Notes under the pieces: model-generated
What the model was told of the DNA's origin: nothing
The model's input: only the letters and a program-made list of their open reading frames with translations
Database searches by the model: none
IMG/VR virus record: IMGVR_UViG_3300021093_003813
Coordinates: 1-64,000 of that record
Strand: one strand, 5' to 3'
DNA from: a virus
Length of the DNA: 64,000 nt
In this document: positions 1,562 to 12,477 of the stretch, in pieces
How the letters are laid out: the number at the start of each line of letters is the position of its first letter
Position numbering within the stretch: the first letter of the stretch is position 1
Made by a program: the position numbers and the translations under genes

Positions 1562-2158
1562 TCAACGACTTACAGGCTTCTTCTTTCTCGGAGTTTTGGG
1601 CTTTTGGGACTTGGGTTTAAATTTGGTTTCCAATCGTCTGCTAACTTCTTCACCTGACATCCAGATGTCTTTGTTCTGTAAGATAGAATTGATTTCTGTT
1701 TCTGTTAAAAATCCTGTGTACACATCCTTCCACAACTTTCTACTCCATTCACGTTCATGCACAATGTTGTCGTACATCTCGCCGCCCTTACCGAAACTAC
1801 CTGAGCTGTAGTTATGGAACATGAACATGGAATGTTTGCTGATTTCAAAATGCTTGGCTGACAAGAATATCACTGTGGCTGCACTCATGCAAGCACCTTC
1901 CACAGATGCCACCACATTGGCCTTGGTCTCAGCTATGGCTCTCATGAACTGAATGGCTGTGAACAAATCACCGCCGTAACTGTTGATGTGTAACACCACC
2001 ACATCAGCTTCACTTGAATTTCTTATGGTTTCAAACCAATGCACATATTCAGAAGGTGACTTTATCTCACCTGAAAGATAGAACTTATGAACTTTAGAAA
2101 TGGGCCGGTCAATGAATGCTGCCGAGCCCCCAGGAATTTCATTTGTTGCTTTCTCCAT
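1562..2158 (-). CDS. clpP: ClpP-like serine protease subunit
   Basis: LHINSYGGD, GACMSAA (catalytic Ser), FMFHN (His), DIWMSGEE; basic C-terminal tail. Confidence 0.8.
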   Translation of the reverse strand: MEKATNEIPGGSAAFIDRPISKVHKFYLSGEIKSPSEYVHWFETIRNSSEADVVVLHINSYGGDLFTAIQFMRAIAETKANVVASVEGACMSAATVIFLSAKHFEISKHSMFMFHNYSSGSFGKGGEMYDNIVHEREWSRKLWKDVYTGFLTETEINSILQNKDIWMSGEEVSRRLETKFKPKSQKPKTPRKKKPVSR

Positions 2159-2519
2159 AATATCTCGTCACCTTTAGAATTTTATCAATTTGTTTCTGAA
2201 TGATGTCTTTACGATTCGGCCAATGAATGTATTCCTTGTCAGGATTCTTTTGGAGATTGTAAAGAAGAGGAAGGATCATCTGTTCTACTTGTTGCAACTT
2301 TCCACGAACTTCTGAGGTCACCAGTTGTTTGTGCTGTTCAATCAAACTGGTTGTATCACCTGTCGTGAGTTCTTCCAACTTATTTTCTAATGCTGAAATC
2401 TTGTCCAACAATTCACTTTTAAATTCTGCATCTTCTGGTGTTGCTGTGGGAACAACTTGCTGTGGTACACCTAAATCATCATCAGCAAATGTGAACCCGA
2501 AATCGAAATCATTTTCCAT
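2139..2519 (-). CDS. hypothetical phage protein
   Basis: 126 aa ORF overlapping both neighbours in the operon; DFDFGFTF N-terminus, YIHWPNR C-terminal motif. Confidence 0.75.
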   Translation of the reverse strand: MENDFDFGFTFADDDLGVPQQVVPTATPEDAEFKSELLDKISALENKLEELTTGDTTSLIEQHKQLVTSEVRGKLQQVEQMILPLLYNLQKNPDKEYIHWPNRKDIIQKQIDKILKVTRYYGESNK

Positions 2520-3045
2520 GTCTTAACCGTTTTTGGTGTTTGAGCTGACGCTTCTTCCATTTATCTAGTTCCCACTTCAACTTGAAATGAGAAGCGTGAA
2601 ATGTGAAATTGATACCTTCCATATGGTCATACTCATGTAGTAGCACTCTGGCGCCAATCCCTTGAAACTTGCCAGACTTCATTTCTCCCTTCTCATTCTG
2701 CCACTCCATCACAACTTCTGCAGGACGCCTCAGTGTCAAATAGAATCCTGGAAATGATAAACACCCTTCTTCAATGGCCACTTCTTTCTTACTTACTCCC
2801 ACCACATTGGGATTGAAGAAGGCAATCTTTTCTTCTTTGGTGCCAATCACGAACACACGATACGGAAGTCCCACTTGATTGGCAGACAATCCTGCGCCAT
2901 CCCACTCCACCATCTTCTGATGTAGCACATCTGCCAGTTCTGCTGCTTTGTCTGCATCTTTCTCAAAGTCAAACGCAGGAGGCTTGGTGGTCATGCGTTC
3001 ATCAGTGAAATGAATCAGGTGTAAATCATCAATATTGAAATGCAT
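2509..3045 (-). CDS. def: peptide deformylase
   Basis: All three PDF motifs: GAGLSANQVG, EGCLS, HEYDHMEG. Confidence 0.95.
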   Translation of the reverse strand: MHFNIDDLHLIHFTDERMTTKPPAFDFEKDADKAAELADVLHQKMVEWDGAGLSANQVGLPYRVFVIGTKEEKIAFFNPNVVGVSKKEVAIEEGCLSFPGFYLTLRRPAEVVMEWQNEKGEMKSGKFQGIGARVLLHEYDHMEGINFTFHASHFKLKWELDKWKKRQLKHQKRLRHGK

Positions 3046-3063: not shown

Positions 3064-4776
3064 TTATACCATCACAGAGAAATTCTGTCGTTTGGTAAAC
3101 TTCACGATGTGTGCAAACTTATCAAACAATTGGTCACCCTTATGTGAAATCACAAACACATTGGTGCTATCACCTAAAGTATTCAACAACGTCATCACAT
3201 AGTCTGTGGCACTGGTGTCTAAGCTACTATCAAACACCTCATCAAGAATAAGCAGATTAGTGCTAGCAGAATTTTTGAGCTTGGCGATTGTACGCCACGT
3301 AAACAGAAGCGCCAAATCAATTCTTTGTTTCTCGCCTTCACTAAAGCTTTCGTAACTAAAATCATCCCGATAACGTGATTTAATAACCTCATCAAATTTC
3401 TCATCAAGTGTGAATTGGACAAAGAAGTCCATGGATGTCAAAAACTTGTTGACGAGTTTATTTATCGCCGGGAGATACTGTCGGATAATCTTGGTCTTGA
3501 TGCCGGAGTCCTTCAATAGAATGCCAGCGATATCATAGTAATCACTGAGTTCATTCAATTCACTGCGTTCCTTCACCACACCCAATGTTTCTTTAGCCAA
3601 GTCCTTCAACTTGGTTTTCTCTACATCTATGTTACCCACCTTCTGACTGACATCTGCCTTCTCCAGTTCCAACCGTTGAATGAATCGTTCTGTGGAGGCT
3701 AGTTCAGATTTCACTGAGGCAATTTCCTCATTCAATGTGCCAATTTCTTTATTGATACTGGCAATTTCAGCCAAACGTTCCTGGAGAGATACCTTCTGGT
3801 CTTCAATCTGTTCAATGTTGCCATGCACCTTCTTCAAATCCTCAGACCGTTCATCAATAATATCCTTCTTGAAATCATGTTCAATGCCTTGTTTACACTT
3901 GGGACAAGTATCATTGTTATGATAGAAAGAAATTTCTTTTTCTATGGACGCTGCTGTGGATTCGAACTCTCGGACTTGCCGTAGAATTTCGGAAACAGCT
4001 TCGTTAACAACAGATGCATCCCCAATACTGTTAAAATGACCAGTTCTTCTATCATCAAGATGAAGTAGTATATTGCGTTTATTATGGACCTCATTGTCCG
4101 CCTCCTGAATTTTCACCTCAATGTCAGCAATTCTAGCATCACGATCCTCTTCCAAGGTCTTGATGTAATCTTGCTGAATCTCAGCTTTGTTTTTTGCCAG
4201 TGTGATTTTGTTGTCCACATCTTGCATCTTGTTCTTCAATTCTGTAATTTTTTCCTTCAACACCAGATTCATGGATGTGAAAATCTTGATATCCAAGATG
4301 TCCTCAATCACTTCTCGACGAGCAGCAGCTGGCAGTTGCATGAAAGGTGTGAAAGATGCTGACCCAAGAATCACAATCTGTGTGAAGGACTTGTAATTCA
4401 ATTTCAAAATGTTTTCTTCCAGATACTTCTGATAATCTCTGCTGGCAGCATCTTGATTGATGAGATTGCCATCCACCCAGATTTCAAAAATGGCAGGCTT
4501 GATGCCACGAATGATTTTATATGTTTTGTTGCCAATGTAAAATTCAATTTCCACCACACAATTCTTGCCATTGATGGTGTTCACCAACTGAGGCTTGTTG
4601 ATGTTTCTATACGGCTTACCAAACAAAGCAAAACAGATGGCATCTAAAAGTGTACTCTTGCCACTTCCATTCTCTCCCACAATCAATGTAGTGGGACGTT
4701 CATCCAACTGTAATTGTGTGTAGGCATTTCCTGTGGACAGGAAATTACGCCATCTTACTTTTTGAAAAAAAATCAT
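3064..4776 (-). CDS. gp46: recombination endonuclease subunit gp46 (SbcC/Rad50-like)
   Basis: Walker A GENGSGKST, zinc-hook CPKC, signature FSEGEK, Walker B LILDEVFD. Confidence 0.97.
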   Translation of the reverse strand: MIFFQKVRWRNFLSTGNAYTQLQLDERPTTLIVGENGSGKSTLLDAICFALFGKPYRNINKPQLVNTINGKNCVVEIEFYIGNKTYKIIRGIKPAIFEIWVDGNLINQDAASRDYQKYLEENILKLNYKSFTQIVILGSASFTPFMQLPAAARREVIEDILDIKIFTSMNLVLKEKITELKNKMQDVDNKITLAKNKAEIQQDYIKTLEEDRDARIADIEVKIQEADNEVHNKRNILLHLDDRRTGHFNSIGDASVVNEAVSEILRQVREFESTAASIEKEISFYHNNDTCPKCKQGIEHDFKKDIIDERSEDLKKVHGNIEQIEDQKVSLQERLAEIASINKEIGTLNEEIASVKSELASTERFIQRLELEKADVSQKVGNIDVEKTKLKDLAKETLGVVKERSELNELSDYYDIAGILLKDSGIKTKIIRQYLPAINKLVNKFLTSMDFFVQFTLDEKFDEVIKSRYRDDFSYESFSEGEKQRIDLALLFTWRTIAKLKNSASTNLLILDEVFDSSLDTSATDYVMTLLNTLGDSTNVFVISHKGDQLFDKFAHIVKFTKRQNFSVMV

Positions 4777-5816
4777 ATCTCTAGATTTTGTGCCTCAACA
4801 TACAATGTTTTCAGCAACGTTTTCAATCGTTCTTTGTCCTTTTCTGATTCCACCGAGTCCACATATTCAGATAACAATGTCATAGTATCTTCAATATTCA
4901 CTGATTCACTTTCCAGTGCTTCAGATTCAAACTCAGAAAAATCTTCATGGATGGTCAATTCAATCACTTCATTAATATACAACGCATCCAGCAGTTTGTC
5001 AAATTTTTGATAGTCATTTTTGTGAACGACAATCACCTTTACGCAACATTTCTTGTATGTGGAAGCATCCACAGTGGGCTTTCTATCATCATAGTAAATC
5101 TTATGAAAGATGCGATTGGGATTTTGTATGAAGGTCAGTTCCAAAGTTTCTGTGTCCAGAATATGAAATCCTCGCACATCTTCAAAATCACTCCAAATCA
5201 TTTCATAGGGACTGCCTAGATAGTACACGTTGTCATCAGTGCTTCTGTGATGAAAGTGTCCGGTCAGTACCATGTCATAATGTGACACCAGCTGTCTGTC
5301 CATGCCGGCTTCATTGGTGGCGCCACGAAACATATCAAACCCAGAAATTTCAAAATGACCCAGGCATATTCCCTTGTGCCGCTTCAAAAAATTCATGGTG
5401 TCAGCTTGATTCTCTGGACAAATCCAAGGAACAAAACTGAAATCTTTTCCTCCGAACTGTAGTTCTTTACAGTGCTCAATGATTTGAACATTGGAATATT
5501 CACGAAGGAGCAAATCTGGACTGTTCACTTCACTGGTGTTCTTGTAGTAGGTGTCGTGATTGCCTGGAATCACGAACAGGTCTGCACCATGTTGTTCTAG
5601 AGGACCAAAGAAATAATTTTTGCAAGAACGAAGTGTGGCAAAATTAATATACTTGCGCCTATCAAAAACATCACCCAAGTGAAAAACTGTTTTGATATTG
5701 TGCTCAGTAATGTATGGAAAGAATACTTCATCATAGAATTTCCTGAAATAAGAGTCAAAATGTTGAGAATCATTTCTGGCACCGAAATGGGTGTCAGTGA
5801 GAATGGCAATTTTCAT
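4773..5816 (-). CDS. gp47: recombination endonuclease subunit gp47 (SbcD/Mre11-like)
   Basis: DTHFG, GDVFD, GNHD and GHFH phosphoesterase motifs; adjacent to gp46. Confidence 0.97.
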   Translation of the reverse strand: MKIAILTDTHFGARNDSQHFDSYFRKFYDEVFFPYITEHNIKTVFHLGDVFDRRKYINFATLRSCKNYFFGPLEQHGADLFVIPGNHDTYYKNTSEVNSPDLLLREYSNVQIIEHCKELQFGGKDFSFVPWICPENQADTMNFLKRHKGICLGHFEISGFDMFRGATNEAGMDRQLVSHYDMVLTGHFHHRSTDDNVYYLGSPYEMIWSDFEDVRGFHILDTETLELTFIQNPNRIFHKIYYDDRKPTVDASTYKKCCVKVIVVHKNDYQKFDKLLDALYINEVIELTIHEDFSEFESEALESESVNIEDTMTLLSEYVDSVESEKDKERLKTLLKTLYVEAQNLEI

Positions 5817-6046
5817 TGTTCATCAAATAGCTTGTGGTAGGCAATCATCATCTTGCACGCCTTGATATGTTCTTCCAGGTCCTTGGCATCTTGTTCCGGG
5901 TCTTGACTAAAGATGCCATCAGTTGTGCCAAAGGACTTGATTTGTTCCAAACTTAGAATGAACCCTTCAAGATTTTCTTCTAGTTCTTGCACCACGATTC
6001 TGTCTACAGTTTCCCAATCCAATTCTATAGTAACTTTTCTTGACAT
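5813..6046 (-). CDS. hypothetical protein
   Basis: 77 aa ORF with ATGA overlap to gp47. Confidence 0.7.
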   Translation of the reverse strand: MSRKVTIELDWETVDRIVVQELEENLEGFILSLEQIKSFGTTDGIFSQDPEQDAKDLEEHIKACKMMIAYHKLFDEQ

Positions 6047-6049
6047 GAT

Positions 6050-6493
6050 TTATCCCTCGTAGATGGCAGAGTTGCTGCCATGTTCAAACACTTCCACGCT
6101 CTTTAATCGAACCCGTTGTTGTGTTTCATCTGATACCTGTGAAGCAATATCCGTGTATACAATTTCAGCAAACTTCTCACATCCTACACCAGTGAAGATG
6201 CGAAGTGTCAGGACACCTGCCTCATCCATTTGTTTGAACAATGCTAGATGTGGGTCATCCGCAGCAACAGCAGTGGTATGGTCAAATGCTTCTTCGAGAT
6301 AGGCCTTGATCCACTTGGTGTTTCCGAAATCATACACCCAATTTCTGTCATCCAATTTATCAGCTTCAAAAATGAAACGAAATCCCAAGCTGTAACCATG
6401 AATCTGATTACAATGTGATGTGGCACGCCACTGACGAAAAGCACAGCTCAATCCACGGTCATTGCCGAAAGTTTTTGTTGAATAATATTTCAC
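6050..6493 (-). CDS. queD: 6-carboxy-5,6,7,8-tetrahydropterin synthase
   Basis: CNQIHGYS, FDHT, GCEKFAE and VFEH T-fold motifs; in folE/queE cluster. Confidence 0.9.
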   Translation of the reverse strand: MKYYSTKTFGNDRGLSCAFRQWRATSHCNQIHGYSLGFRFIFEADKLDDRNWVYDFGNTKWIKAYLEEAFDHTTAVAADDPHLALFKQMDEAGVLTLRIFTGVGCEKFAEIVYTDIASQVSDETQQRVRLKSVEVFEHGSNSAIYEG

Positions 6494-6495
6494 AA

Positions 6496-7515
6496 CTACC
6501 TCGCAAGATAAGAGTACATGATGTCAGCATTCAGATATTTCAAAGACAAGATGCCACGTTGTTGTTCCATGATGCTTTCATACCTATCATAATTGTCTAT
6601 CTTGTCCTGAATAAAATCTTTCATTTTCTGTTTATGAAGTTGAAAGTTGTCCCAACTACTGGTCCACTCAGAAGGATACTTGAAAGGCTTCAAATACATT
6701 TCTGAATAACTGCATCTGTCTGGCACAATGGGAATGGCGCCTGCCAAACATCCTTCCATCATGCTGATGCCTAGATTCTCATGCAAGGCACAACTGAACA
6801 CCGCCTTGCTAGTGCTCAACAGATGATAGTAATCTTCTTTTGACAAGTTCAACTTCTGTGATATCACCACATCCAGTTGTTCAGCAATCTCTGGTTGTTT
6901 GTCTGCATTGTATCTGTGAGGCCAAATCACTTTGTTTTCTTTGGGAAGATTGATGTATTTGGATAATTCCAACCTCATCAGATGATGAGGTTGTCCAGAA
7001 CGAATAGCCTTTTTGTGAGCAGCTGGCGTGATGTTCAGGTTGTTCAGAAACATCTGTAGATGAAACTCTGTGGCGAAATAGTTGTAATCACAGGCATGAT
7101 ACCAACTTCTTTCTGCATGATTGGCTGATTCACCTTTCATCTTCATACCCAGGATGTCTGTGGGATCATAAGCACCAGCATGCCAGATGCCATGAATTTC
7201 CACAGGAATCTCTAGCAAATCACTCATGTATCTGATGGCAGTGATGGCAAAGTTCCAGGCATCTGTGACCAGAAACTTGTCACCAGGCTGCACTTGATTC
7301 ATCAGAAACAAATCAGCAATCTGCTTCACTTGTGATGCCTTGTACTTGTTGGTGAAGGCGAAGTTCAGAAAGGCACCTGAAGTGGTGTCAGAATGCACCG
7401 GGTCACCAATGGTTCTGTTTTTCAATCCACGACGGTCCAGGTCCTTGGGAATGTTGTGATACCATTGCTTAGTGTAACGTTGGTCAATAGGTTCAATTGA
7501 AACAATGAAAATCAT
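6496..7515 (-). CDS. GT-B (GT4-like) glycosyltransferase, GTDC1/QTMAN-like
   Basis: WPHRxxxDKxPE and HENLGISMMEG (E-x7-E GT4 motif); coupled inside the deazaguanine operon. Confidence 0.85.
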   Translation of the reverse strand: MIFIVSIEPIDQRYTKQWYHNIPKDLDRRGLKNRTIGDPVHSDTTSGAFLNFAFTNKYKASQVKQIADLFLMNQVQPGDKFLVTDAWNFAITAIRYMSDLLEIPVEIHGIWHAGAYDPTDILGMKMKGESANHAERSWYHACDYNYFATEFHLQMFLNNLNITPAAHKKAIRSGQPHHLMRLELSKYINLPKENKVIWPHRYNADKQPEIAEQLDVVISQKLNLSKEDYYHLLSTSKAVFSCALHENLGISMMEGCLAGAIPIVPDRCSYSEMYLKPFKYPSEWTSSWDNFQLHKQKMKDFIQDKIDNYDRYESIMEQQRGILSLKYLNADIMYSYLAR

Positions 7516-7910
7516 ACAGCAGGCACCAAAGCAATAGTAGATGTGATGAACGGCTTGTAAATCAAGATGGCTCCATTCTCTCCATCTTCACTGACGCCAA
7601 CTTCCACAACACGACCAGGATAATTCATCTTGATATACTCAATCAATTCTTCTGCCAGCATTTCACAACTCTTGTAATCAATATCATAGATGCCATTGTA
7701 CAAACTTTCCAATTCACGCTTGAACAAAATGAATTCAATGTCTCTGTCATTATGATTCACAGATACACGAACACGAAAATGAAACATATGACGATGAGGA
7801 TATCCAAGAAATTGAACATGCTTCAAGTTCGGATCATCTAATGCAGCTGGATACTTGTGTATTCCTTCCTTTTGAAATGTTACTTCAATGTATCGTTCTA
7901 TAGTTTCCAT
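7512..7910 (-). CDS. dpdL: second T-fold QueD paralogue, DpdL-like (putative CDG decarboxylase)
   Basis: EGIHKYP, LGYPHRHMF (LxxxHRHxF), DIEF, SCEMLAE, VSEDGENG; lacks the QueD CxxxHGH motif. Confidence 0.6.
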   Translation of the reverse strand: METIERYIEVTFQKEGIHKYPAALDDPNLKHVQFLGYPHRHMFHFRVRVSVNHNDRDIEFILFKRELESLYNGIYDIDYKSCEMLAEELIEYIKMNYPGRVVEVGVSEDGENGAILIYKPFITSTIALVPAV

Positions 7911-9214
7911 TAGAACTCCTCCGGAAGACTTTTGGGTTGGCCATCTTTAATAGGTGTGCTATCCAAATTTGAACTTGTGTGTCGCAACCAGTGCTCAAAA
8001 TCTTGTCGAGATTTCACACTTCTCATGTCAGAAGTGGCCTCGAAGGTCAACACATCCACCAATTCACGAGCCTTAGAGAAATCGTTGGATACAGTTTCCA
8101 CGTGACGCATGAAGTTCATGGTGCTTCCCACAAAGTAGGCACTGAATGCCTCTAGTGGTGGGAGAAAGTTTCCATTGTGCAACTTCTGATAGGCACGAAC
8201 TGGAATGTTCATGGCTTCCATGAAGAAATCATCATCTACAATGTAATCTTTCACATACTTTCTGACATCACTATTGATGAACCTGTAATCTTTTGTACCT
8301 TGACCACCATTCTCTGTCTTATAATTGTTTTCATCATCACGAAACAATCTGCCTGGCGTGATCCACTTGAAGTCTGGTCCATAATATCGCCCCATCTGCA
8401 CCCCTGACGTGTGAGTGGTGCTGTCATAACTCACCAAAGTGTTCTGATACATATCATGATGTTGCATGGCAATCACAGGAAGCAATCTAGACACTGACCC
8501 AACACCCAACAAATGAAAATGATGTGTGGTCTTGGACAATGGCAGTTGTGTGTAATAGAAGGCTCTCTTGCAATCTTCCAATGTGCCAGTGCCCAATGCC
8601 ACCGCACCTAAAGCCACGCCACCAATGAATTCATGCAACTCCTTGGGAATCTCCTCCAAGGCCAGTTCTGTCCAGCGAACATAGCTGTCCAAGTCATTGC
8701 CTTGTGCAATAAAGAAAGGACGTGCTTTGGATCCCATCTTGAGGAAGGTTTCAATCTGGTCACGAATGTTCTTGCCAGATTCTCTGGCACACCATTCAAA
8801 CTTGCTTCTGTCAAAATACTTGCTGCTGGTGTCTGACCTGGATGACCGTTCCGACTTCAATGACACCGGAATTTCATCAAAGCTCATGGCACAATCTGAA
8901 TAGTTGCCTTGATTGGTGTACACTTCCTGCTTCAGTTGTGGTGTGATGGTTTTGCCTAGTGTAATCATTTGCAGACCACCTGAGTCAGCATAAATCTGAT
9001 TCACACCTTTGCCACGATACACATCACGAAAGAATTCACCAAACTCCTTTTCAATAAAGGCGTTATACAGAAAAGAAAATTCATGATTGTGTTGACCCCG
9101 AAGCAATGACCACATACCATTCAATCTCTTGGCAGTGTCACCCATCTGTGATTCTTTGAATCGCACCCGTAGAAATGAAAGACCTGACGCCACATATTCA
9201 AATTTCATAATCAA
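7910..9214 (-). CDS. dpdA: TGT-family transglycosylase, DpdA-like (7-deazaguanine insertion into DNA)
   Basis: ADSGGLQ, SFDEIP, IAQG, HLLGVGS and SYDSTT TGT catalytic motifs; context with folE/queD/queE. Confidence 0.8.
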   Translation of the reverse strand: MIMKFEYVASGLSFLRVRFKESQMGDTAKRLNGMWSLLRGQHNHEFSFLYNAFIEKEFGEFFRDVYRGKGVNQIYADSGGLQMITLGKTITPQLKQEVYTNQGNYSDCAMSFDEIPVSLKSERSSRSDTSSKYFDRSKFEWCARESGKNIRDQIETFLKMGSKARPFFIAQGNDLDSYVRWTELALEEIPKELHEFIGGVALGAVALGTGTLEDCKRAFYYTQLPLSKTTHHFHLLGVGSVSRLLPVIAMQHHDMYQNTLVSYDSTTHTSGVQMGRYYGPDFKWITPGRLFRDDENNYKTENGGQGTKDYRFINSDVRKYVKDYIVDDDFFMEAMNIPVRAYQKLHNGNFLPPLEAFSAYFVGSTMNFMRHVETVSNDFSKARELVDVLTFEATSDMRSVKSRQDFEHWLRHTSSNLDSTPIKDGQPKSLPEEF

Positions 9215-9738
9215 CTCTTTAGAATTTTCAAAAGGTGTTTGGTTTGATACACGGCATCATCCAAGGCATTGTGATAGCTTCCTGTACGTTCATCCAATGG
9301 CATCTGAATGATTTCTTTCATGGTTCTGTAACATCTGTCCAACCAGGGAGTCCAAGGACGTTTCATACCACAGGCTTTATAGGCATTTTCTATGATGACA
9401 TTATCAAATCCTGCTCCACAACCCCACGTGGGCATGGGCTTGGCACCATACCAGTGTGAGAATTTCACCAAGGCATCATGTAAAGGAACATTGTCTTTTC
9501 TCAACATTTCCAACACTTCACGTGGTTGTTTGCTCCACCAACGCACCGTGTCGGCTGAAATGTCTAACCCCAGCTTCTTGCAATCAGCCGCATCCACAGT
9601 GCAATAGAATGTATCCAAGATGTCATCTTCCACACTGAATTTCACTGCACCAATGGAACAGATGGCTGCATTGGATTCCACACTCATGGTCTCCAAGTCC
9701 AACATCACCTGAACGTCAAATGACATGAAATCAAGCAC
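9211..9738 (-). CDS. DEDDh 3'-5' exonuclease
   Basis: MLDLETM (ExoI), WGCGAGFD (ExoII), RCYRT, HNALDDA (ExoIII). Confidence 0.9.
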   Translation of the reverse strand: MLDFMSFDVQVMLDLETMSVESNAAICSIGAVKFSVEDDILDTFYCTVDAADCKKLGLDISADTVRWWSKQPREVLEMLRKDNVPLHDALVKFSHWYGAKPMPTWGCGAGFDNVIIENAYKACGMKRPWTPWLDRCYRTMKEIIQMPLDERTGSYHNALDDAVYQTKHLLKILKS

Positions 9739-10453
9739 TCCTACATGAAGGCATTTTGATGAGACTTATGAACTCGGCACGTAGTGCGGGATTTTCTTTG
9801 AAGCCTCCACCCAACTTGGATGTAAGAGTATCACAATGAGGATCTCGAATACCACGGGCCTTCACACAGAAATGTTCAGCATCAATCACCACTGCCACAT
9901 CAGGTGTTTCCAGAATGAATGCCAAGGAGTGATAGATTTGTTCAGCCAACCTTTCTTGAACCTGAGGGCGGCGTGAGAAATATTCCACCACACGATTCAA
10001 TTTGCTTAATCCCAACACTTTGTTCTTGGGAATATACGCCACGTGTGCCACACCTGAAATAGTGATGAAGTGATGTTCACAGCAAGACATGACTGTGATG
10101 TTCTTTTCCAGAACCATTTCATCATAACCCATCTTGTTTTCAATGGCAGTACACTTTGGAAACATGGCAGGATCCAATCCCCAAAACAATTCATTCACAA
10201 ACATCTTGGCCACACGAGCTGGACTATCTTGTAGACTGTCATCAGTCAAATCCATGCCCAATGTTTCCATGATGGCTGTGAAATGTTTTTCAATCTTCTT
10301 CACCTTTCGGTCAGCATACTCACCTGTCTGAATAGTAGGTGTTTCCACGCCAAGAGATTGAAGATGCTTATGGACCCGAAGGCCCAACTCAGGGTCGCAT
10401 TTACCCAAAGCATTGCGAATGGCGTTTGCGTTATATCGCTGCTGTGATTTCAT
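9731..10453 (-). CDS. folE: GTP cyclohydrolase I
   Basis: SPARVAKM, SCCEHH, GLSKLNR, RRPQVQERL, HFCVKARG. Start reassigned to ATG 10453 (GGAGA SD). Confidence 0.97.
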   Translation of the reverse strand: MKSQQRYNANAIRNALGKCDPELGLRVHKHLQSLGVETPTIQTGEYADRKVKKIEKHFTAIMETLGMDLTDDSLQDSPARVAKMFVNELFWGLDPAMFPKCTAIENKMGYDEMVLEKNITVMSCCEHHFITISGVAHVAYIPKNKVLGLSKLNRVVEYFSRRPQVQERLAEQIYHSLAFILETPDVAVVIDAEHFCVKARGIRDPHCDTLTSKLGGGFKENPALRAEFISLIKMPSCRSA

Positions 10454-10454
10454 A

Positions 10455-11354
10455 TTATCTCCCAATCACGTTGCCAAAGACATAACAATGATTTCGTGTG
10501 GCAACGTTATATCCACGATTCATTGCTTCAATACAAAGGTCACCAATATAGGGATCCTCTTGTGCATCTTTGGTGGCACCCACAGGCATCACCCAGATTT
10601 TCGGCATCAAATTCCTACATAGAAACCTAATACGTTCCAACTCAATGTCAAGTTCCGACCAACATTCAGATGTACCATTACACACAAACTTCAGCACGTT
10701 TGTGGATACGGAGAAAATATAATCTCGAATCACTTCTGGTTTAACTGCATGTTTCTCACCTGACACATTGAACAGCTTGGGACTCATGGACCAGTGCCAA
10801 CGCAGACCGCCTAAATTTCTGAAATCCAAAGCAATGAATCTACGAAGTTCCTCACTCAATGGTGTTGTGGCGTTGGTTTCCACAGTGATGATACGCGGCA
10901 TATTACCACGATGTGCCAACTCTGTCAGAATTGCCACCATCGCCTTTTGCTGTAACATGGGCTCGCCACCTGTGAAACACAACATGGTGTCCTGTTCAGT
11001 ATTAGGATGAATAAACAATCCTGAAGGGTTGTGTTCATTCTTGTTGGCCTCAATCAACCTATCGGCAATTTCCGAGGGAGAGGCGTCATGTGCCAGATGT
11101 TTGTATTTCTGTGACCAGGAGTAGGAGCTGTCACAGCCATAGGACCAAACAGGAAGTTGTTCCACAGACTTCACAGAAGCAACATTGAAGTCCTTGTAGG
11201 GAAGAATATAACTGGCGGGGTCTGTGGGATTCTTTTGACCAAATCCTTCACAGTTCAAATTACATCCAAAGAAACGAAGCCAGACGGCGGGAGTACCTGC
11301 CAGTTCTGCTTCACCTTGGAACGAATAGAAAATTTCTGAGTATCTAATTCTCAT
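10455..11354 (-). CDS. queE: 7-carboxy-7-deazaguanine synthase (radical SAM)
   Basis: SEIFYSFQGE, WLRFFGCNLNC...GCD, FTGGEP, VETN, SMSPKL, HCYVFGN. Start ATG 11354 with GAGGTG SD. Confidence 0.93.
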   Translation of the reverse strand: MRIRYSEIFYSFQGEAELAGTPAVWLRFFGCNLNCEGFGQKNPTDPASYILPYKDFNVASVKSVEQLPVWSYGCDSSYSWSQKYKHLAHDASPSEIADRLIEANKNEHNPSGLFIHPNTEQDTMLCFTGGEPMLQQKAMVAILTELAHRGNMPRIITVETNATTPLSEELRRFIALDFRNLGGLRWHWSMSPKLFNVSGEKHAVKPEVIRDYIFSVSTNVLKFVCNGTSECWSELDIELERIRFLCRNLMPKIWVMPVGATKDAQEDPYIGDLCIEAMNRGYNVATRNHCYVFGNVIGR

Positions 11355-11408
11355 AATCACCTCACAGGATACATAACAATCTACAATTATTTAGGAGCGT
11401 GTCAATGG

Positions 11409-12041
11409 TTATTCGTATTCAATTTCACCTGTTTCTATAGTCGCTTCCACACTCAACACATCCAGATGTTGGGATTCATCCATCAGAACATCATCATCCA
11501 GTTTCTGGAGATACTTAGGCTTTCTGGTCATCTTTTTGTCCTTCTTGGTGTCATACAATTCTTTCTGTGCTGTGTCTGCCTGTTGCTTCAGATATCGGAT
11601 GAAACCATTGTCATAGCTTCCTTCATCATGGGCTTGTCGGATGATGCCTTCAATGTCCAAAGACTCAATGTACCGATATTTGGTTTGTAGATGTTTCTTT
11701 TCTTTCTGGATTCTACGCAGAAATGCGTAATAGGTGATTTGCGTGAAATAGGCAAAAGGATTGCTGGATTTCTTGGGATCGAAGTTGTCCATGTAGATGA
11801 GACAATTTTCAATGGCATCCAGAATCATATCTTCACGAAAACTGTAGTTGATGAAATTGCTTTTGTAGGCCAAATGATTGGCAATCTTGATGAAACAATC
11901 ACCGATGTAATCTGGAACTTGAGGCCTTTCTTCTTCATTCCTCTTGGCCCTGTTCACTTCTTTTTTGAATTCAATCAAAGCAGCCAGAAACTGCTTGTTG
12001 TCAATGTAGTGCTTACTGTTCTCGTCCTTCTTCTTCACCAT
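11409..12041 (-). CDS. gp55: late-transcription sigma factor gp55
   Basis: HYIDNKQFL, YIGDCFIKIA, NFINYS, NPFAYFTQI, AFLRRIQKEKK. Start reassigned to ATG 12041 (GGAGAG SD). Confidence 0.96.
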   Translation of the reverse strand: MVKKKDENSKHYIDNKQFLAALIEFKKEVNRAKRNEEERPQVPDYIGDCFIKIANHLAYKSNFINYSFREDMILDAIENCLIYMDNFDPKKSSNPFAYFTQITYYAFLRRIQKEKKHLQTKYRYIESLDIEGIIRQAHDEGSYDNGFIRYLKQQADTAQKELYDTKKDKKMTRKPKYLQKLDDDVLMDESQHLDVLSVEATIETGEIEYE

Positions 12042-12477
12042 AATACTCTCCATGATATTCATCAATATCAATAATGTGGACATCTCCATTGGTCACTTCA
12101 CGCAACAAATCATCTGCTGCGTCTGACCGTTCTTCCTGTTCCAGAAACTTCTGTCGGGTTTCTTTAGCTTGTGTAACATAAACAACATATTGTTTTCTGA
12201 CTTCTCTCTTCATGTCACCTATGGTCAGCACTACATCAGTGCTGATGACGAAATCTTCTCCGTCACTCAACCCCATCCAAGGACGAAGCATAAAACTTTC
12301 TCCAATCACATGATTGCCTCGGCGGGTTTCTTTCATGGGCACCACTTGCACAGGAACATGCATCTGTAGATGTGTTTCTGCTGCTGTGGACTTCACATCT
12401 CGTTCCATGTTACACAGGATGTTTTCTCCTGTTTTCAGCTTTACAATTTTGAAATATCCATCGTCGGTACTAAGCAT
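12013..12477 (-). CDS. conserved hypothetical protein between uvsW and gp55
   Basis: IVKLKTGENI N-terminus and LRPW motif typical of this syntenic T4-like gene. Confidence 0.75.
   Translation of the reverse strand: MLSTDDGYFKIVKLKTGENILCNMERDVKSTAAETHLQMHVPVQVVPMKETRRGNHVIGESFMLRPWMGLSDGEDFVISTDVVLTIGDMKREVRKQYVVYVTQAKETRQKFLEQEERSDAADDLLREVTNGDVHIIDIDEYHGEYYGEEEGREQ

Follow-up and report, generated by a model that had tools for sequence, protein, structure and literature searches.

A glycosyltransferase (GT) of a T4-like phage, encoded within an operon for 7-deazaguanine synthesis, is, in the reading that we favour on balance, an active retaining GT-B enzyme dedicated to the DpdL-type module, which would transfer a sugar onto a 7-deazaguanine base, most likely after that base has been inserted. 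The outcome may be the first glycosylated purine-type DNA base, a 7-deazaguanine whose ring bears a sugar as an N2-glycoside or as a C7/C8 C-glycoside, formed by an enzyme akin to the animal queuosine mannosyltransferase QTMAN, a more far-reaching proposal whose chances we put slightly below even.

The operon and its genes

The window, that is, the whole stretch of 64,000 nucleotides that was analysed, carries the genes of interest on the minus strand as follows:

5813..6046, minus: 77-aa ORF at the downstream end of the operon, membership in the system uncertain
6050..6493, minus: QueD, 6-carboxytetrahydropterin synthase (PF01242, E 1e-17; phrog_2389, E 2.8e-37)
6496..7515, minus: glycosyltransferase of predicted GT-B/GT4 type, 339 aa (translation, motifs, AF2 model, hhalign)
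7512..7910, minus: DpdL-type T-fold protein, 132 aa, proposed 7-carboxy-7-deazaguanine decarboxylase (phrog_17812, E 1.2e-35)
7910..9214, minus: putative DpdA-like DNA-guanine transglycosylase, TGT fold, 434 aa (AF2 pLDDT 87.8; Foldseek)
9211..9738, minus: 3'-5' exonuclease, Rv2179c-like, between dpdA and folE (PF16473, E 7.8e-42; phrog_255)
9731..10465, minus: FolE, GTP cyclohydrolase I (PF01227, E 4.6e-60)
10455..11360, minus: QueE-like radical SAM enzyme, CDG synthase (phrog_2076, E 1.4e-44; weak Fer4_12 match)

The first-pass annotation, made from the sequence alone, had described an ORF at 6496-7515 lying coupled between a dpdL-like gene and queD, and this description was borne out. The ORF of 339 aa starts with ATG on the minus strand, and its translation contains all the quoted motifs in the stated order, namely IWPHRYNADKQPE, LSKEDYYHLL, VFSCALHENLGISMMEG, PIVPDRCSYSE and ACDYNYFATEFHLQMFL. 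Its start codon is shared with the stop of the upstream 132-aa dpdL-like gene in an ATGA overlap, and its own stop, TAG, is followed by a 2-nt gap and the GTG start of queD; GT is translationally coupled to dpdL.

Of the parts of a DpdL-type module, FolE, QueD, QueE, the DpdL T-fold protein and the TGT-fold transglycosylase (DpdA) are present. The DpdL signature is LxxxHRHxF (PMC10516641), and the protein encoded here reads FLGYPHRHMF at this place, instead of the CxxxHGH of QueD, and is 37% identical to the phiST DpdL region (E 2e-13). PDB sequences contained no significant match to either the DpdA-like or the DpdL-like protein, so the identity of the DpdA-like protein was settled from its fold: all 50 listed Foldseek PDB matches are TGT enzymes or the DNA preQ0 insertase DpdA (7ui4), with E values from 3e-9 to 9e-8 among the matches listed. 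This protein also matches TIGR00449 at 0.0011 and, by tblastn, the TGT-like genes of KVP40-type, Stenotrophomonas and Xanthomonas phages at 5e-29 to 1e-79, and its substrate is presumably DNA, not RNA.

The exonuclease gene is kept in the same place in 21 related loci. The 77-aa ORF is present in the closest relatives only and had no match in Pfam, PHROG or NCBIfam, and a megablast search of the phage collection with the operon gave no match. QueC was found neither in the operon or the 64-kb window nor in the 99%-complete relative (G006), ACP17, PA5oct and Phosso; two QueC-like PP-loop ORFs occur elsewhere in the genome, at ~71.5 kb and 97.3 kb, as partial matches of 27 and 35 bits, and the end-point of the pathway (CDG/DG) in a phage with two such ORFs is not certain.

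Fold, catalytic motif and family of the glycosyltransferase

The AF2 model of GT (pLDDT 87.9, pTM 0.86) consists of two Rossmann-like domains separated by a cleft, and its structural neighbours by Foldseek and VIA include SPS, BshA, MshA, PglA and PimA, with Z of 24.2-20.3 in VIA-align over 274-313 aligned residues (rmsd 2.8-4.2). The tetrahydrobiopterin glucosyltransferases 5zes and 9v0l are also among them (Z 20.6-20.8), and the Z-score list as a whole is flat and generic. An E-x7-E motif, HE246NLGISMME254, is located in the C-terminal domain, and among 62 family representatives, 26-56% identical to the query, Q62, G114, E135, E254, P265 and E272 are invariant and E246 nearly so. The assignment to GT-B proteins made in the first-pass annotation is supported by the fold, the GT4 neighbours and this motif, and by its model and sequence GT is predicted to be a GT-B/GT4 glycosyltransferase whose E-x7-E motif is intact. 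The first-pass annotation had also named best structural matches among generic LPS/GT4 enzymes as contrary to its reading; the best solved matches are indeed generic GT4 enzymes (BshA, MshA), but they are no argument against kinship to QTMAN, because there is no QTMAN structure among the matches.

Named families capture GT poorly. Pfam Glycos_transf_1 gives 17 bits against a gathering cut-off of 26.4, and of the 62 family members, 51 reach E<=1 with it (best 4.5e-9); PHROGs and NCBIfam gave no match, and neither did a search of PDB chain sequences with the single protein. With the family profile, the sole PDB match was AmGGT (8xsg), a generic GT4 enzyme, at 5e-5, and ESM Atlas returned clusters that are either viral and unnamed or generic Glycos_transf_1, none of them QTMAN. 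The family, with 752 clusters at 90% identity and 2418 representatives at 50% identity, is very large, almost purely viral and without a Pfam or PHROG name. Neither fusions nor longer versions of GT turned up, though this is weak evidence. Cultured phages that bear GT include PA5oct, Phosso, Xanthomonas phages X1 and BUDD, Burkholderia phage BCSR5 and ACP17, whose GT is ASD50404.1.

Kinship to the queuosine mannosyltransferase

The resemblance claimed for GT was to QTMAN/GTDC1, an alpha-mannosyltransferase with GDP-mannose as its donor. QTMAN glycosylates Q34 in tRNA-Asp (PMC11755703). The motif WPHRWEHDK, which the first-pass annotation had ascribed to GTDC1, proved to be real: it was found in more than 120 bacterial genomes, and all eight of the WPHRWEHDK proteins scanned against Pfam carry QTMAN_N together with Glycos_transf_1, the QTMAN_N scores of bona fide bacterial members being 1e-34 to 1e-59. 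In hhalign, the GT family and the bacterial QTMAN family align with an E of 8e-26, far above chance. When 30 bacterial QTMAN proteins were used for alignment half by half, the C-terminal halves gave 99.8% and E 6.2e-30, and the N-terminal halves a probability of 2.5% and P 0.019. QTMAN_N (PF12038) had no match in GT at E<=10, nor in its genome, and was matched by none of the 62 family representatives at E<=1. Comparison with the C-terminal blocks of the QTMAN family (WPHRWEHDK.PE; STA.HEFFG..EA; VP.RL.YPE) gave three common blocks: (V/I)(W/F)PHR..(D/E)K.PE; SK..Y..LL...(V/I).S.A..E..G(I/V)...EA; and P.VP.R(L/C).Y.E.

In five bacterial genomes, the GT profile matches the QTMAN gene at 1e-14 to 1e-18, and no other gene does better than 0.019. 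Of 167 Bacteroidota genomes, 80 have a match, nearly always one each, and the genes singled out are essentially QTMAN-family genes alone. All 29 Bacteroidota matches examined fit the QTMAN C-half model, and 26 fit the N-half model at 1e-52 or better, the other three being short or cut ORFs; the genome behind one of these matches, L244, is unpublished (G164), and leaving this match out does not alter the result.

The claimed resemblance is specific in the donor-binding C-terminal half, whereas the acceptor-side QTMAN_N domain is not detectable. We regard the kinship as genuine in that half only, where GT, judged from sequence profiles, is specifically akin to QTMAN/GTDC1 and not to GT4 enzymes in general. 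Because QTMAN_N is not detectable in GT, homology does not show recognition of 7-deazaguanine, and it is from gene linkage, not from homology, that a 7-deazaguanine acceptor is deduced. The cellular relatives provide no clue from context, since no FolE, QueD, QueE, DpdL or TGT-like neighbours were found in the fetched flanks of 120 bacterial QTMAN-family loci. QTMAN and the phage GT share the GT-B/GT4 architecture, a similar length and a tie to 7-deazaguanine placed in nucleic acid by a TGT-fold enzyme. However, the context of the phage enzyme is DNA modification and that of QTMAN is tRNA, and the cyclopentenediol hydroxyl that serves QTMAN as acceptor is not available in the phage system.

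Linkage to deazaguanine genes

Close linkage of GT to dpdA, dpdL, folE, queD and queE is widespread, and the evidence for it is very strong. Among 84 viral GT loci, FolE is encoded within 8 kb in 79, DpdL in 74 and a TGT-like protein (TGT-fold DpdA) in 76, loci without linked genes being mostly cut contigs. Co-occurrence with dpdA and dpdL across phages, which the first-pass annotation had proposed as a check, was thus found, and homologues unlinked to dpdA, which it had named as contrary evidence, are not the pattern. The linkage extends to distant GTs, 26-37% identical to the family and found by two single-protein scans, where 8 of 9 loci have DpdL nearby, and the TGT-like partners of GT belong to at least two unrelated families. 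In cultured phages, GT occurs in 17 records belonging to five separate lineages, and all 17 are among the 28 DpdL-positive records of 50,697. The contexts comprise T4-like phages, the jumbo phages PA5oct and Phosso, and Xanthomonas and Burkholderia phages; GT lies directly beside the deazaguanine genes in Phosso, ACP17 and PA5oct.

Proposed function

The likeliest role of GT is glycosylation of the deazaguanine base following its insertion into DNA. In the proposed pathway, FolE, QueD and QueE would produce 7-carboxy-7-deazaguanine, which the DpdL-type protein would decarboxylate to 7-deazaguanine, and the TGT-fold DpdA-like enzyme would exchange guanine in phage DNA for this base. GT would then move a sugar from a nucleotide sugar to the 7-deazaguanine base, which is presumably glycosylated in DNA. 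The sugar would come from the host here, and may be phage-made in relatives with a cytidylyltransferase gene beside GT; such a gene is near GT in 40 of the 84 loci, at a distance of <=3 bp in 26, and in locus L023, the sole one scanned with Pfam, it is fused to a mannose-6-phosphate-isomerase-type cupin.

A comparable system is the DpdL/DpdA 7-deazaguanine (dDG) system of Cellulophaga phage phiST (Cui, Hutinet et al., NAR 2023, PMC10516641). Like this operon, it combines FolE, QueD, QueE, a DpdL with LxxxHRHxF and a TGT-fold transglycosylase in an operon without QueC, but phiST has no homologue of GT, and the transglycosylase here is nearer to the KVP40/nt-1 and Xanthomonas phage type than to phiST DpdA3. 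As phiST makes dDG without GT, GT is dispensable for deazaguanine insertion, and its presence here, unlike in phiST, predicts a step beyond dDG.

Sugar transfer would most likely follow insertion, as precedents suggest: QTMAN acts on queuosine already in tRNA, and the T4 alpha- and beta-glucosyltransferases, which are, like the predicted GT, phage GT-B enzymes decorating an already modified DNA base, act on hmC already in DNA. T4 alpha-gt is located in the gene 55-gene 47 interval, and the phage GT gene also sits between gene 55 and gene 47. Sequence kinship between the T4 enzymes and GT is not detectable, however, and the presumed acceptor of GT is a purine analogue, unlike hmC. The T4 acceptor is made by hydroxymethyl-pyrimidine synthesis, which is encoded neither in this genome nor in its near-complete relative; the ThyA/dCMP-hydroxymethylase family (PF00303) was not found in this genome, the 99%-complete relative or ACP17, and Phosso and PA5oct have one ThyA-family gene each.

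Against the proposed transfer, CDG/DG, the presumed product of the operon, has no hydroxyl such as QTMAN glycosylates on queuosine, and the minimal operon (here and in ACP17) contains no enzyme that would make one. The sugar might be carried by the exocyclic N2, the position used in huimycin, or by one of the pyrrole-ring carbons C7 and C8. In huimycin synthesis, N2-glycosylation of the 7-deazaguanine base has been assigned to the GT4-type enzyme HuiG (PMC7439116; 10.64898/2026.04.15.718813), which by description is similar to the phage GT in having a family-4 N-domain and in being encoded beside FolE, QueD and QueE genes. As its sugar is attached directly to the exocyclic 2-amino group of the 7-deazaguanine ring, a side-chain hydroxyl is not needed. 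HuiG differs in acting on a free O6-methylated preQ0 base and in belonging to a secondary-metabolite cluster without a transglycosylase.

The biological role would be to shield DNA from host nucleases. DNA of PA5oct is resistant to enzymes that have G in GA or GG sites, and nucleases sensing hypermodified DNA attack it (PMC12191111).

Alternative explanations

Glycosylation of a free deazapurine or pterin intermediate (CDG, DG or a FolE/QueD product), before or apart from DpdA, would yield either a glycosylated base for insertion by DpdA or a soluble glycoside, like those of HuiG (huimycin) and BGluT (pteridine glucoside). We consider this rather unlikely, and yet to be taken seriously: the acceptors of the top structural neighbours, BshA, MshA and tetrahydrobiopterin glucosyltransferase, are small molecules, and, going by the model, these neighbours would be just as compatible with a free base or precursor as substrate; HuiG, a Glyco_transf_4-domain GT, works on a free 7-deazaguanine derivative; and the FolE and PTPS-type chemistry with which the operon begins is also that of pteridine glycosides. 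However, the Z-score list, being flat and generic, gives small-molecule enzymes no special place; GT goes along with DpdL and the TGT-fold DNA insertase, not with FolE/QueD alone; and no genes for export or regulation, as in a metabolite cluster, are present. Moreover, an N2-glycosylated base is unlikely to be inserted, because the TGT-type pocket, as established TGT structures have revealed, recognises the base through its N2/O6 face.

It is improbable that GT serves outside nucleic acids, on host envelope glycans or a phage protein, and owes its place to chance in a hyperplastic T4-like slot. The gp55-gp47 interval is a variable region of T4-like phages, GT4 enzymes mostly make cell-envelope glycans, and the sole Pfam match of GT is the generic Glycos_transf_1, below cut-off; but chance does not accord with the translational coupling to dpdL, nor with a DpdL/FolE/TGT-like linkage kept across genome contexts and down to 26% identity. 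Action on RNA as by QTMAN, on queuosine or another deazaguanine in tRNA of the host or the phage, with the TGT-like neighbour as a tRNA enzyme, appears very improbable, despite the nearest cellular relatives of GT being QTMAN-family proteins and QTMAN glycosylating tRNA-Asp Q34 (PMC11755703). No tRNA genes were found in the 64-kb window, QTMAN_N was not detected in GT, and the operon cannot make queuosine, since QueC, queF and queA were not seen among its genes. In addition, insertion of preQ0 into DNA has been demonstrated experimentally for the nt-1 relative of the TGT-like protein family (PMC10516641), and the G modification of PA5oct is at the DNA level.

Novelty and implications

The statement of the first-pass annotation that no glycosylated deazaguanine DNA base has been characterised agrees with the literature searched, in which neither such a base in DNA nor a measurement of the nucleoside was described. 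To our knowledge, the sugar-bearing DNA bases are all pyrimidines, namely glucosyl- and arabinosyl-hmC, base J and glycosylated 5-hydroxycytosine, and the 7-deazaguanines of DNA carry small groups only; a glycosylated deazaguanine would thus constitute a new class of hypermodification. If deazaguanine in phage DNA is glycosylated by GT, anti-restriction chemistry of DNA would be linked with glyco-queuosine of tRNA through shared ancestry with the animal queuosine mannosyltransferase. This would help to explain the G modification of the therapeutic-candidate jumbo phage PA5oct, the failed reconstitution of dDG from ACP17 dpdL and dpdA, and what modification-sensing nucleases (END family) meet in nature, and would provide an enzyme for tagging 7-deaza-dG, a base easily introduced by PCR, in DNA. 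The GT family is very common in environmental phages, and the phages that bear it form a very large, mostly uncultured group.

Operon and genome setting

The first-pass annotation had placed a GT-B glycosyltransferase, resembling the tRNA-queuosine mannosyltransferase family (QTMAN/GTDC1), between a dpdL-like gene and queD. The open reading frame (GT; product P0001) is present at 6496-7515 on the minus strand with 339 residues, and each of the quoted peptide motifs occurs in its translation in the order given. The proposed translational coupling is likewise borne out, as the GT ATG overlaps the end of the preceding 132-aa gene in an ATGA, and queD starts with GTG 2 nt beyond the GT stop codon TAG.

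Genes of the operon and its borders in the window
11409-12089, late sigma factor gp55, border
10455-11360, minus, QueE
9731-10465, minus, FolE
9211-9738, minus, exonuclease, Rv2179c-type
7910-9214, minus, tRNA-guanine transglycosylase (TGT)-like protein, 434 aa
7512-7910, minus, DpdL-type protein, 132 aa
6496-7515, minus, GT (P0001)
6050-6493, minus, QueD
5813-6046, minus, 77-aa ORF ending the run between gp47 and queD; no family match, kept in the closest relatives only
3064-5816, gp47 and gp46 (SbcD/SbcC), border

The window is part of a 101-kb fragment, estimated to be 56% complete, of an uncultured T4-like phage. The interval from gp46/gp47 to gp55 is where T4 carries its alpha-glucosyltransferase gene, and a DNA-modification slot seems to have been reused. 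Two auxiliary genes of the sort typically found in marine T4-like phages lie just past gp46, at 1562-3045; they encode a ClpP-like ATP-dependent protease (phrog_1827) and a peptide deformylase (phrog_2890).

The 132-aa neighbour shows homology to the DpdL locus of phiST, and the published signature of DpdL proteins, LxxxHRHxF, appears in it as FLGYPHRHMF. The 434-aa neighbour has the tRNA-guanine transglycosylase fold, all 50 of the listed Foldseek matches being TGT or the DNA preQ0 insertase DpdA. Its phage relatives are TGT-like genes of KVP40-type vibriophages, of which the nt-1 member inserts preQ0 into DNA (PMC10516641), and of Stenotrophomonas and Xanthomonas phages; the KVP40-type matches span residues 1-278 only, and the window enzyme has about 150 extra C-terminal residues, mostly helical.

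Linkage to deazaguanine genes

Neighbours lying up to 8 kb from GT were counted with iterated profile searches in 84 loci, of which 80 came from IMG/VR, three from cultured phages and one from the window. The linkage to dpd genes, the co-occurrence that the first-pass annotation had put forward for checking, is very strong: a TGT-like gene is near GT in 76 loci and DpdL in 74, along with FolE (79), QueE (54) and QueD (42). In seven of the eight loci lacking a TGT-like gene, the contig breaks off shortly upstream of GT, and the eighth is Phosso. Even distant GTs, with 26-37% identity to the family profile, stand beside DpdL in 8/9 loci, with FolE, QueD and QueE as well.

The TGT-like genes come from two mutually unrelated families, as a comparison of window 7910-9214 to L023:5700-7208 and L003 (PA5oct QCG76197.1) shows. 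The GT-DpdL pair thus occurs with at least two families that do not recognise each other in iterated profile searches, which suggests that the module can move from one type of transglycosylase to another. Among 50,697 phage records, GT was found in 17 and DpdL in 28, and all 17 GT records carry DpdL. GT occurs in five cultured lineages (Phosso, ACP17, the PA5oct group, Xanthomonas X1/BUDD and Burkholderia BCSR5), and it is adjacent to the deazaguanine genes in every one inspected. The DpdL-type module carries GT as an optional extra, because the DpdL phages without it include phiST, in which the 7-deazaguanine nucleoside (dDG) has been measured in DNA (PMC10516641).

Fold of GT and kinship to QTMAN

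The AlphaFold2 model (pLDDT 87.9, pTM 0.86) contains two Rossmann-like domains, and its whole-length structural matches are retaining GT-B enzymes, in agreement with the original GT-B call. These matches (Foldseek, VIA-align), including sucrose-phosphate synthase, BshA, MshA, PglA, PimA, trehalose-6-phosphate synthases and tetrahydrobiopterin glucosyltransferase, form a flat ranking with Z from 24 to 20. GT has an intact E-x7-E motif (E246 to E254), and Q62, G114, E135, E254, P265 and E272 are invariant across 62 family representatives with 26-56% identity to the query; from such conservation GT is presumably an active enzyme. The query had no match in PHROGs, NCBIfam or PDB sequences, and its sole Pfam match, Glycos_transf_1, scored 17 bits against a cut-off of 26.4, while this model matches 51/62 family members. 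With 752 clusters at 90% identity, and with 2418 (E<=1e-3) or 426 (E<=1e-30) matching representatives at 50% identity, the family is very large; its members are nearly all of viral or metagenomic origin, and its ESM Atlas neighbours are 94-100% viral.

The GTDC1 motif given in the first-pass annotation proved correct, as back-translated WPHRWEHDK was found in more than 120 bacterial genomes, and all eight such proteins scanned against Pfam contain QTMAN_N (1e-34 to 1e-59) and Glycos_transf_1. When the profile of 62 phage GTs was compared with that of 30 bacterial WPHRWEHDK proteins, they matched over 286 columns with 99.7% probability (E 8e-26). The suggested resemblance is real and specific in the C-terminal donor-binding half (99.8%, E 6e-30), but it does not extend to the N-terminal acceptor side (2.5%, P 0.019). 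QTMAN_N, the defining domain of the family, matched 0/62 phage GTs at E<=1, and the generic Glyco_transf_4 N-domain gave weak matches in 8/62. GT is therefore not classed as QTMAN and is a QTMAN-family relative in its donor half.

Searched against five bacterial genomes (2.5-8.6 Mb), the phage profile matched the QTMAN-family gene at 1e-14 to 1e-18 and the next-best non-QTMAN gene at 0.019 or worse. It found a match in 80/167 Bacteroidota genomes, nearly always one per genome. All 29 Bacteroidota proteins examined match the QTMAN C-half model, and 26 match the N-half model at 1e-52 or better, the other three being short or cut ORFs; one of the 29 is from an unpublished genome (G164, L244), and the result holds without it. 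These comparisons indicate that the C-terminal kinship is specific, beyond general GT4 similarity.

Proposed pathway and acceptor

7-Carboxy-7-deazaguanine (CDG) would be made by FolE, QueD and QueE and converted by DpdL, through its proposed decarboxylase activity, to 7-deazaguanine (DG), which the DpdA-like enzyme would swap into DNA, and GT would then add a sugar to the inserted base. The first three steps follow published work, in which the role of DpdL is a proposal (PMC10516641), and the addition of sugar to the base we infer from gene linkage and operon coupling. The weak point of the mechanism is its chemistry, as DG has no hydroxyl. Direct ring glycosylation has a precedent in HuiG, an enzyme with a GT family-4 N-domain that links GlcNAc to a 7-deazaguanine derivative through its 2-amino group. 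More speculatively, the sugar could be C-linked to the pyrrole ring at the electron-rich carbon. Action on the base in DNA is favoured, because both QTMAN and the T4 glucosyltransferases work on polymer and the TGT pocket reads the base at its N2 and O6 face.

The window's genome, its 99%-complete relative (whose GT is 91% identical) and ACP17 all lack a ThyA/dCMP-hydroxymethylase family gene, so that a hydroxymethyl-pyrimidine acceptor of the T-even type is unavailable. The window contains no tRNA genes. QueC is absent from the operon, the near-complete relative, ACP17, PA5oct and Phosso. Outside the window and far from the operon, the same genome (G000) has two small QueC-like PP-loop ATPase ORFs, whose matches to the QueC model score slightly above cut-off and cover just its C-terminal 50 positions.

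QueC-like PP-loop ORFs
G000:C1 about 71509-72147 (L251:710-1348), minus, 212 aa, QueC model 27 bits
G000:C1 about 97314-97871 (L252:615-1172), minus, 185 aa, QueC model 35 bits

The 99%-complete relative has no match of this kind. As these ORFs could be divergent QueC-like amide-forming enzymes, CDG or DG is the likely, though not the certain, end of the pathway.

The literature searched contained no description of a glycosylated deazaguanine in DNA and none of a link between QTMAN and phages, and the sugar-bearing product of the first-pass annotation stands as a prediction. PA5oct DNA is resistant to enzymes that cut at G in a GA or GG context, and nucleases sensing hypermodified G attack it (PMC12191111); in E. 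coli, no dDG was obtained with dpdL plus dpdA of ACP17 (PMC10516641). Both observations fit this prediction. If confirmed, it would be the first sugar-bearing purine-type base in DNA, and it is easy to check in cultured phages.

Possible sugar supply and tailoring

Some loci give hints of an attached sugar pathway. In locus L023, the copy scanned against Pfam, the start of GT is overlapped by a gene that joins a cytidylyltransferase-like nucleotidyltransferase to a cupin of the mannose-6-phosphate-isomerase type; relatives of the nucleotidyltransferase occur in 40/84 loci, within 3 bp of GT in 26. The sugar donor might be made by this protein. Five loci of a distant GT clade have a radical SAM/SPASM enzyme distinct from QueE directly next to GT, and the window's genome encodes three homologues at a great distance from the operon; such enzymes might tailor the base or the sugar.

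Candidate sugar-pathway and tailoring genes
L023:7211-7996, plus, nucleotidyltransferase-cupin fusion
L216:6899-7978, L212:673-1557, L217:6278-7303, L215:51-1049 and L219:6176-6895, radical SAM/SPASM genes abutting GT
G000:C1 75727-76974, 89819-91261 and 91265-92764, radical SAM/SPASM homologues

The L023-type nucleotidyltransferase-cupin is absent from the 101 kb of the window's genome, as are the second cytidylyltransferase and the YhhQ-type transporter of that locus, and because of this the donor in the window's phage would be a host nucleotide sugar. QTMAN reportedly uses GDP-mannose, and from the QTMAN-like donor half and the isomerase-type cupin nearby we infer a hint of a manno-configured donor. 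L023 also has a second cytidylyltransferase near GT, and inside its deazaguanine cluster, at L023:10028-10636, is a YhhQ-type (Vut_1) queuosine-precursor transporter, a gene seen in 15/84 loci.
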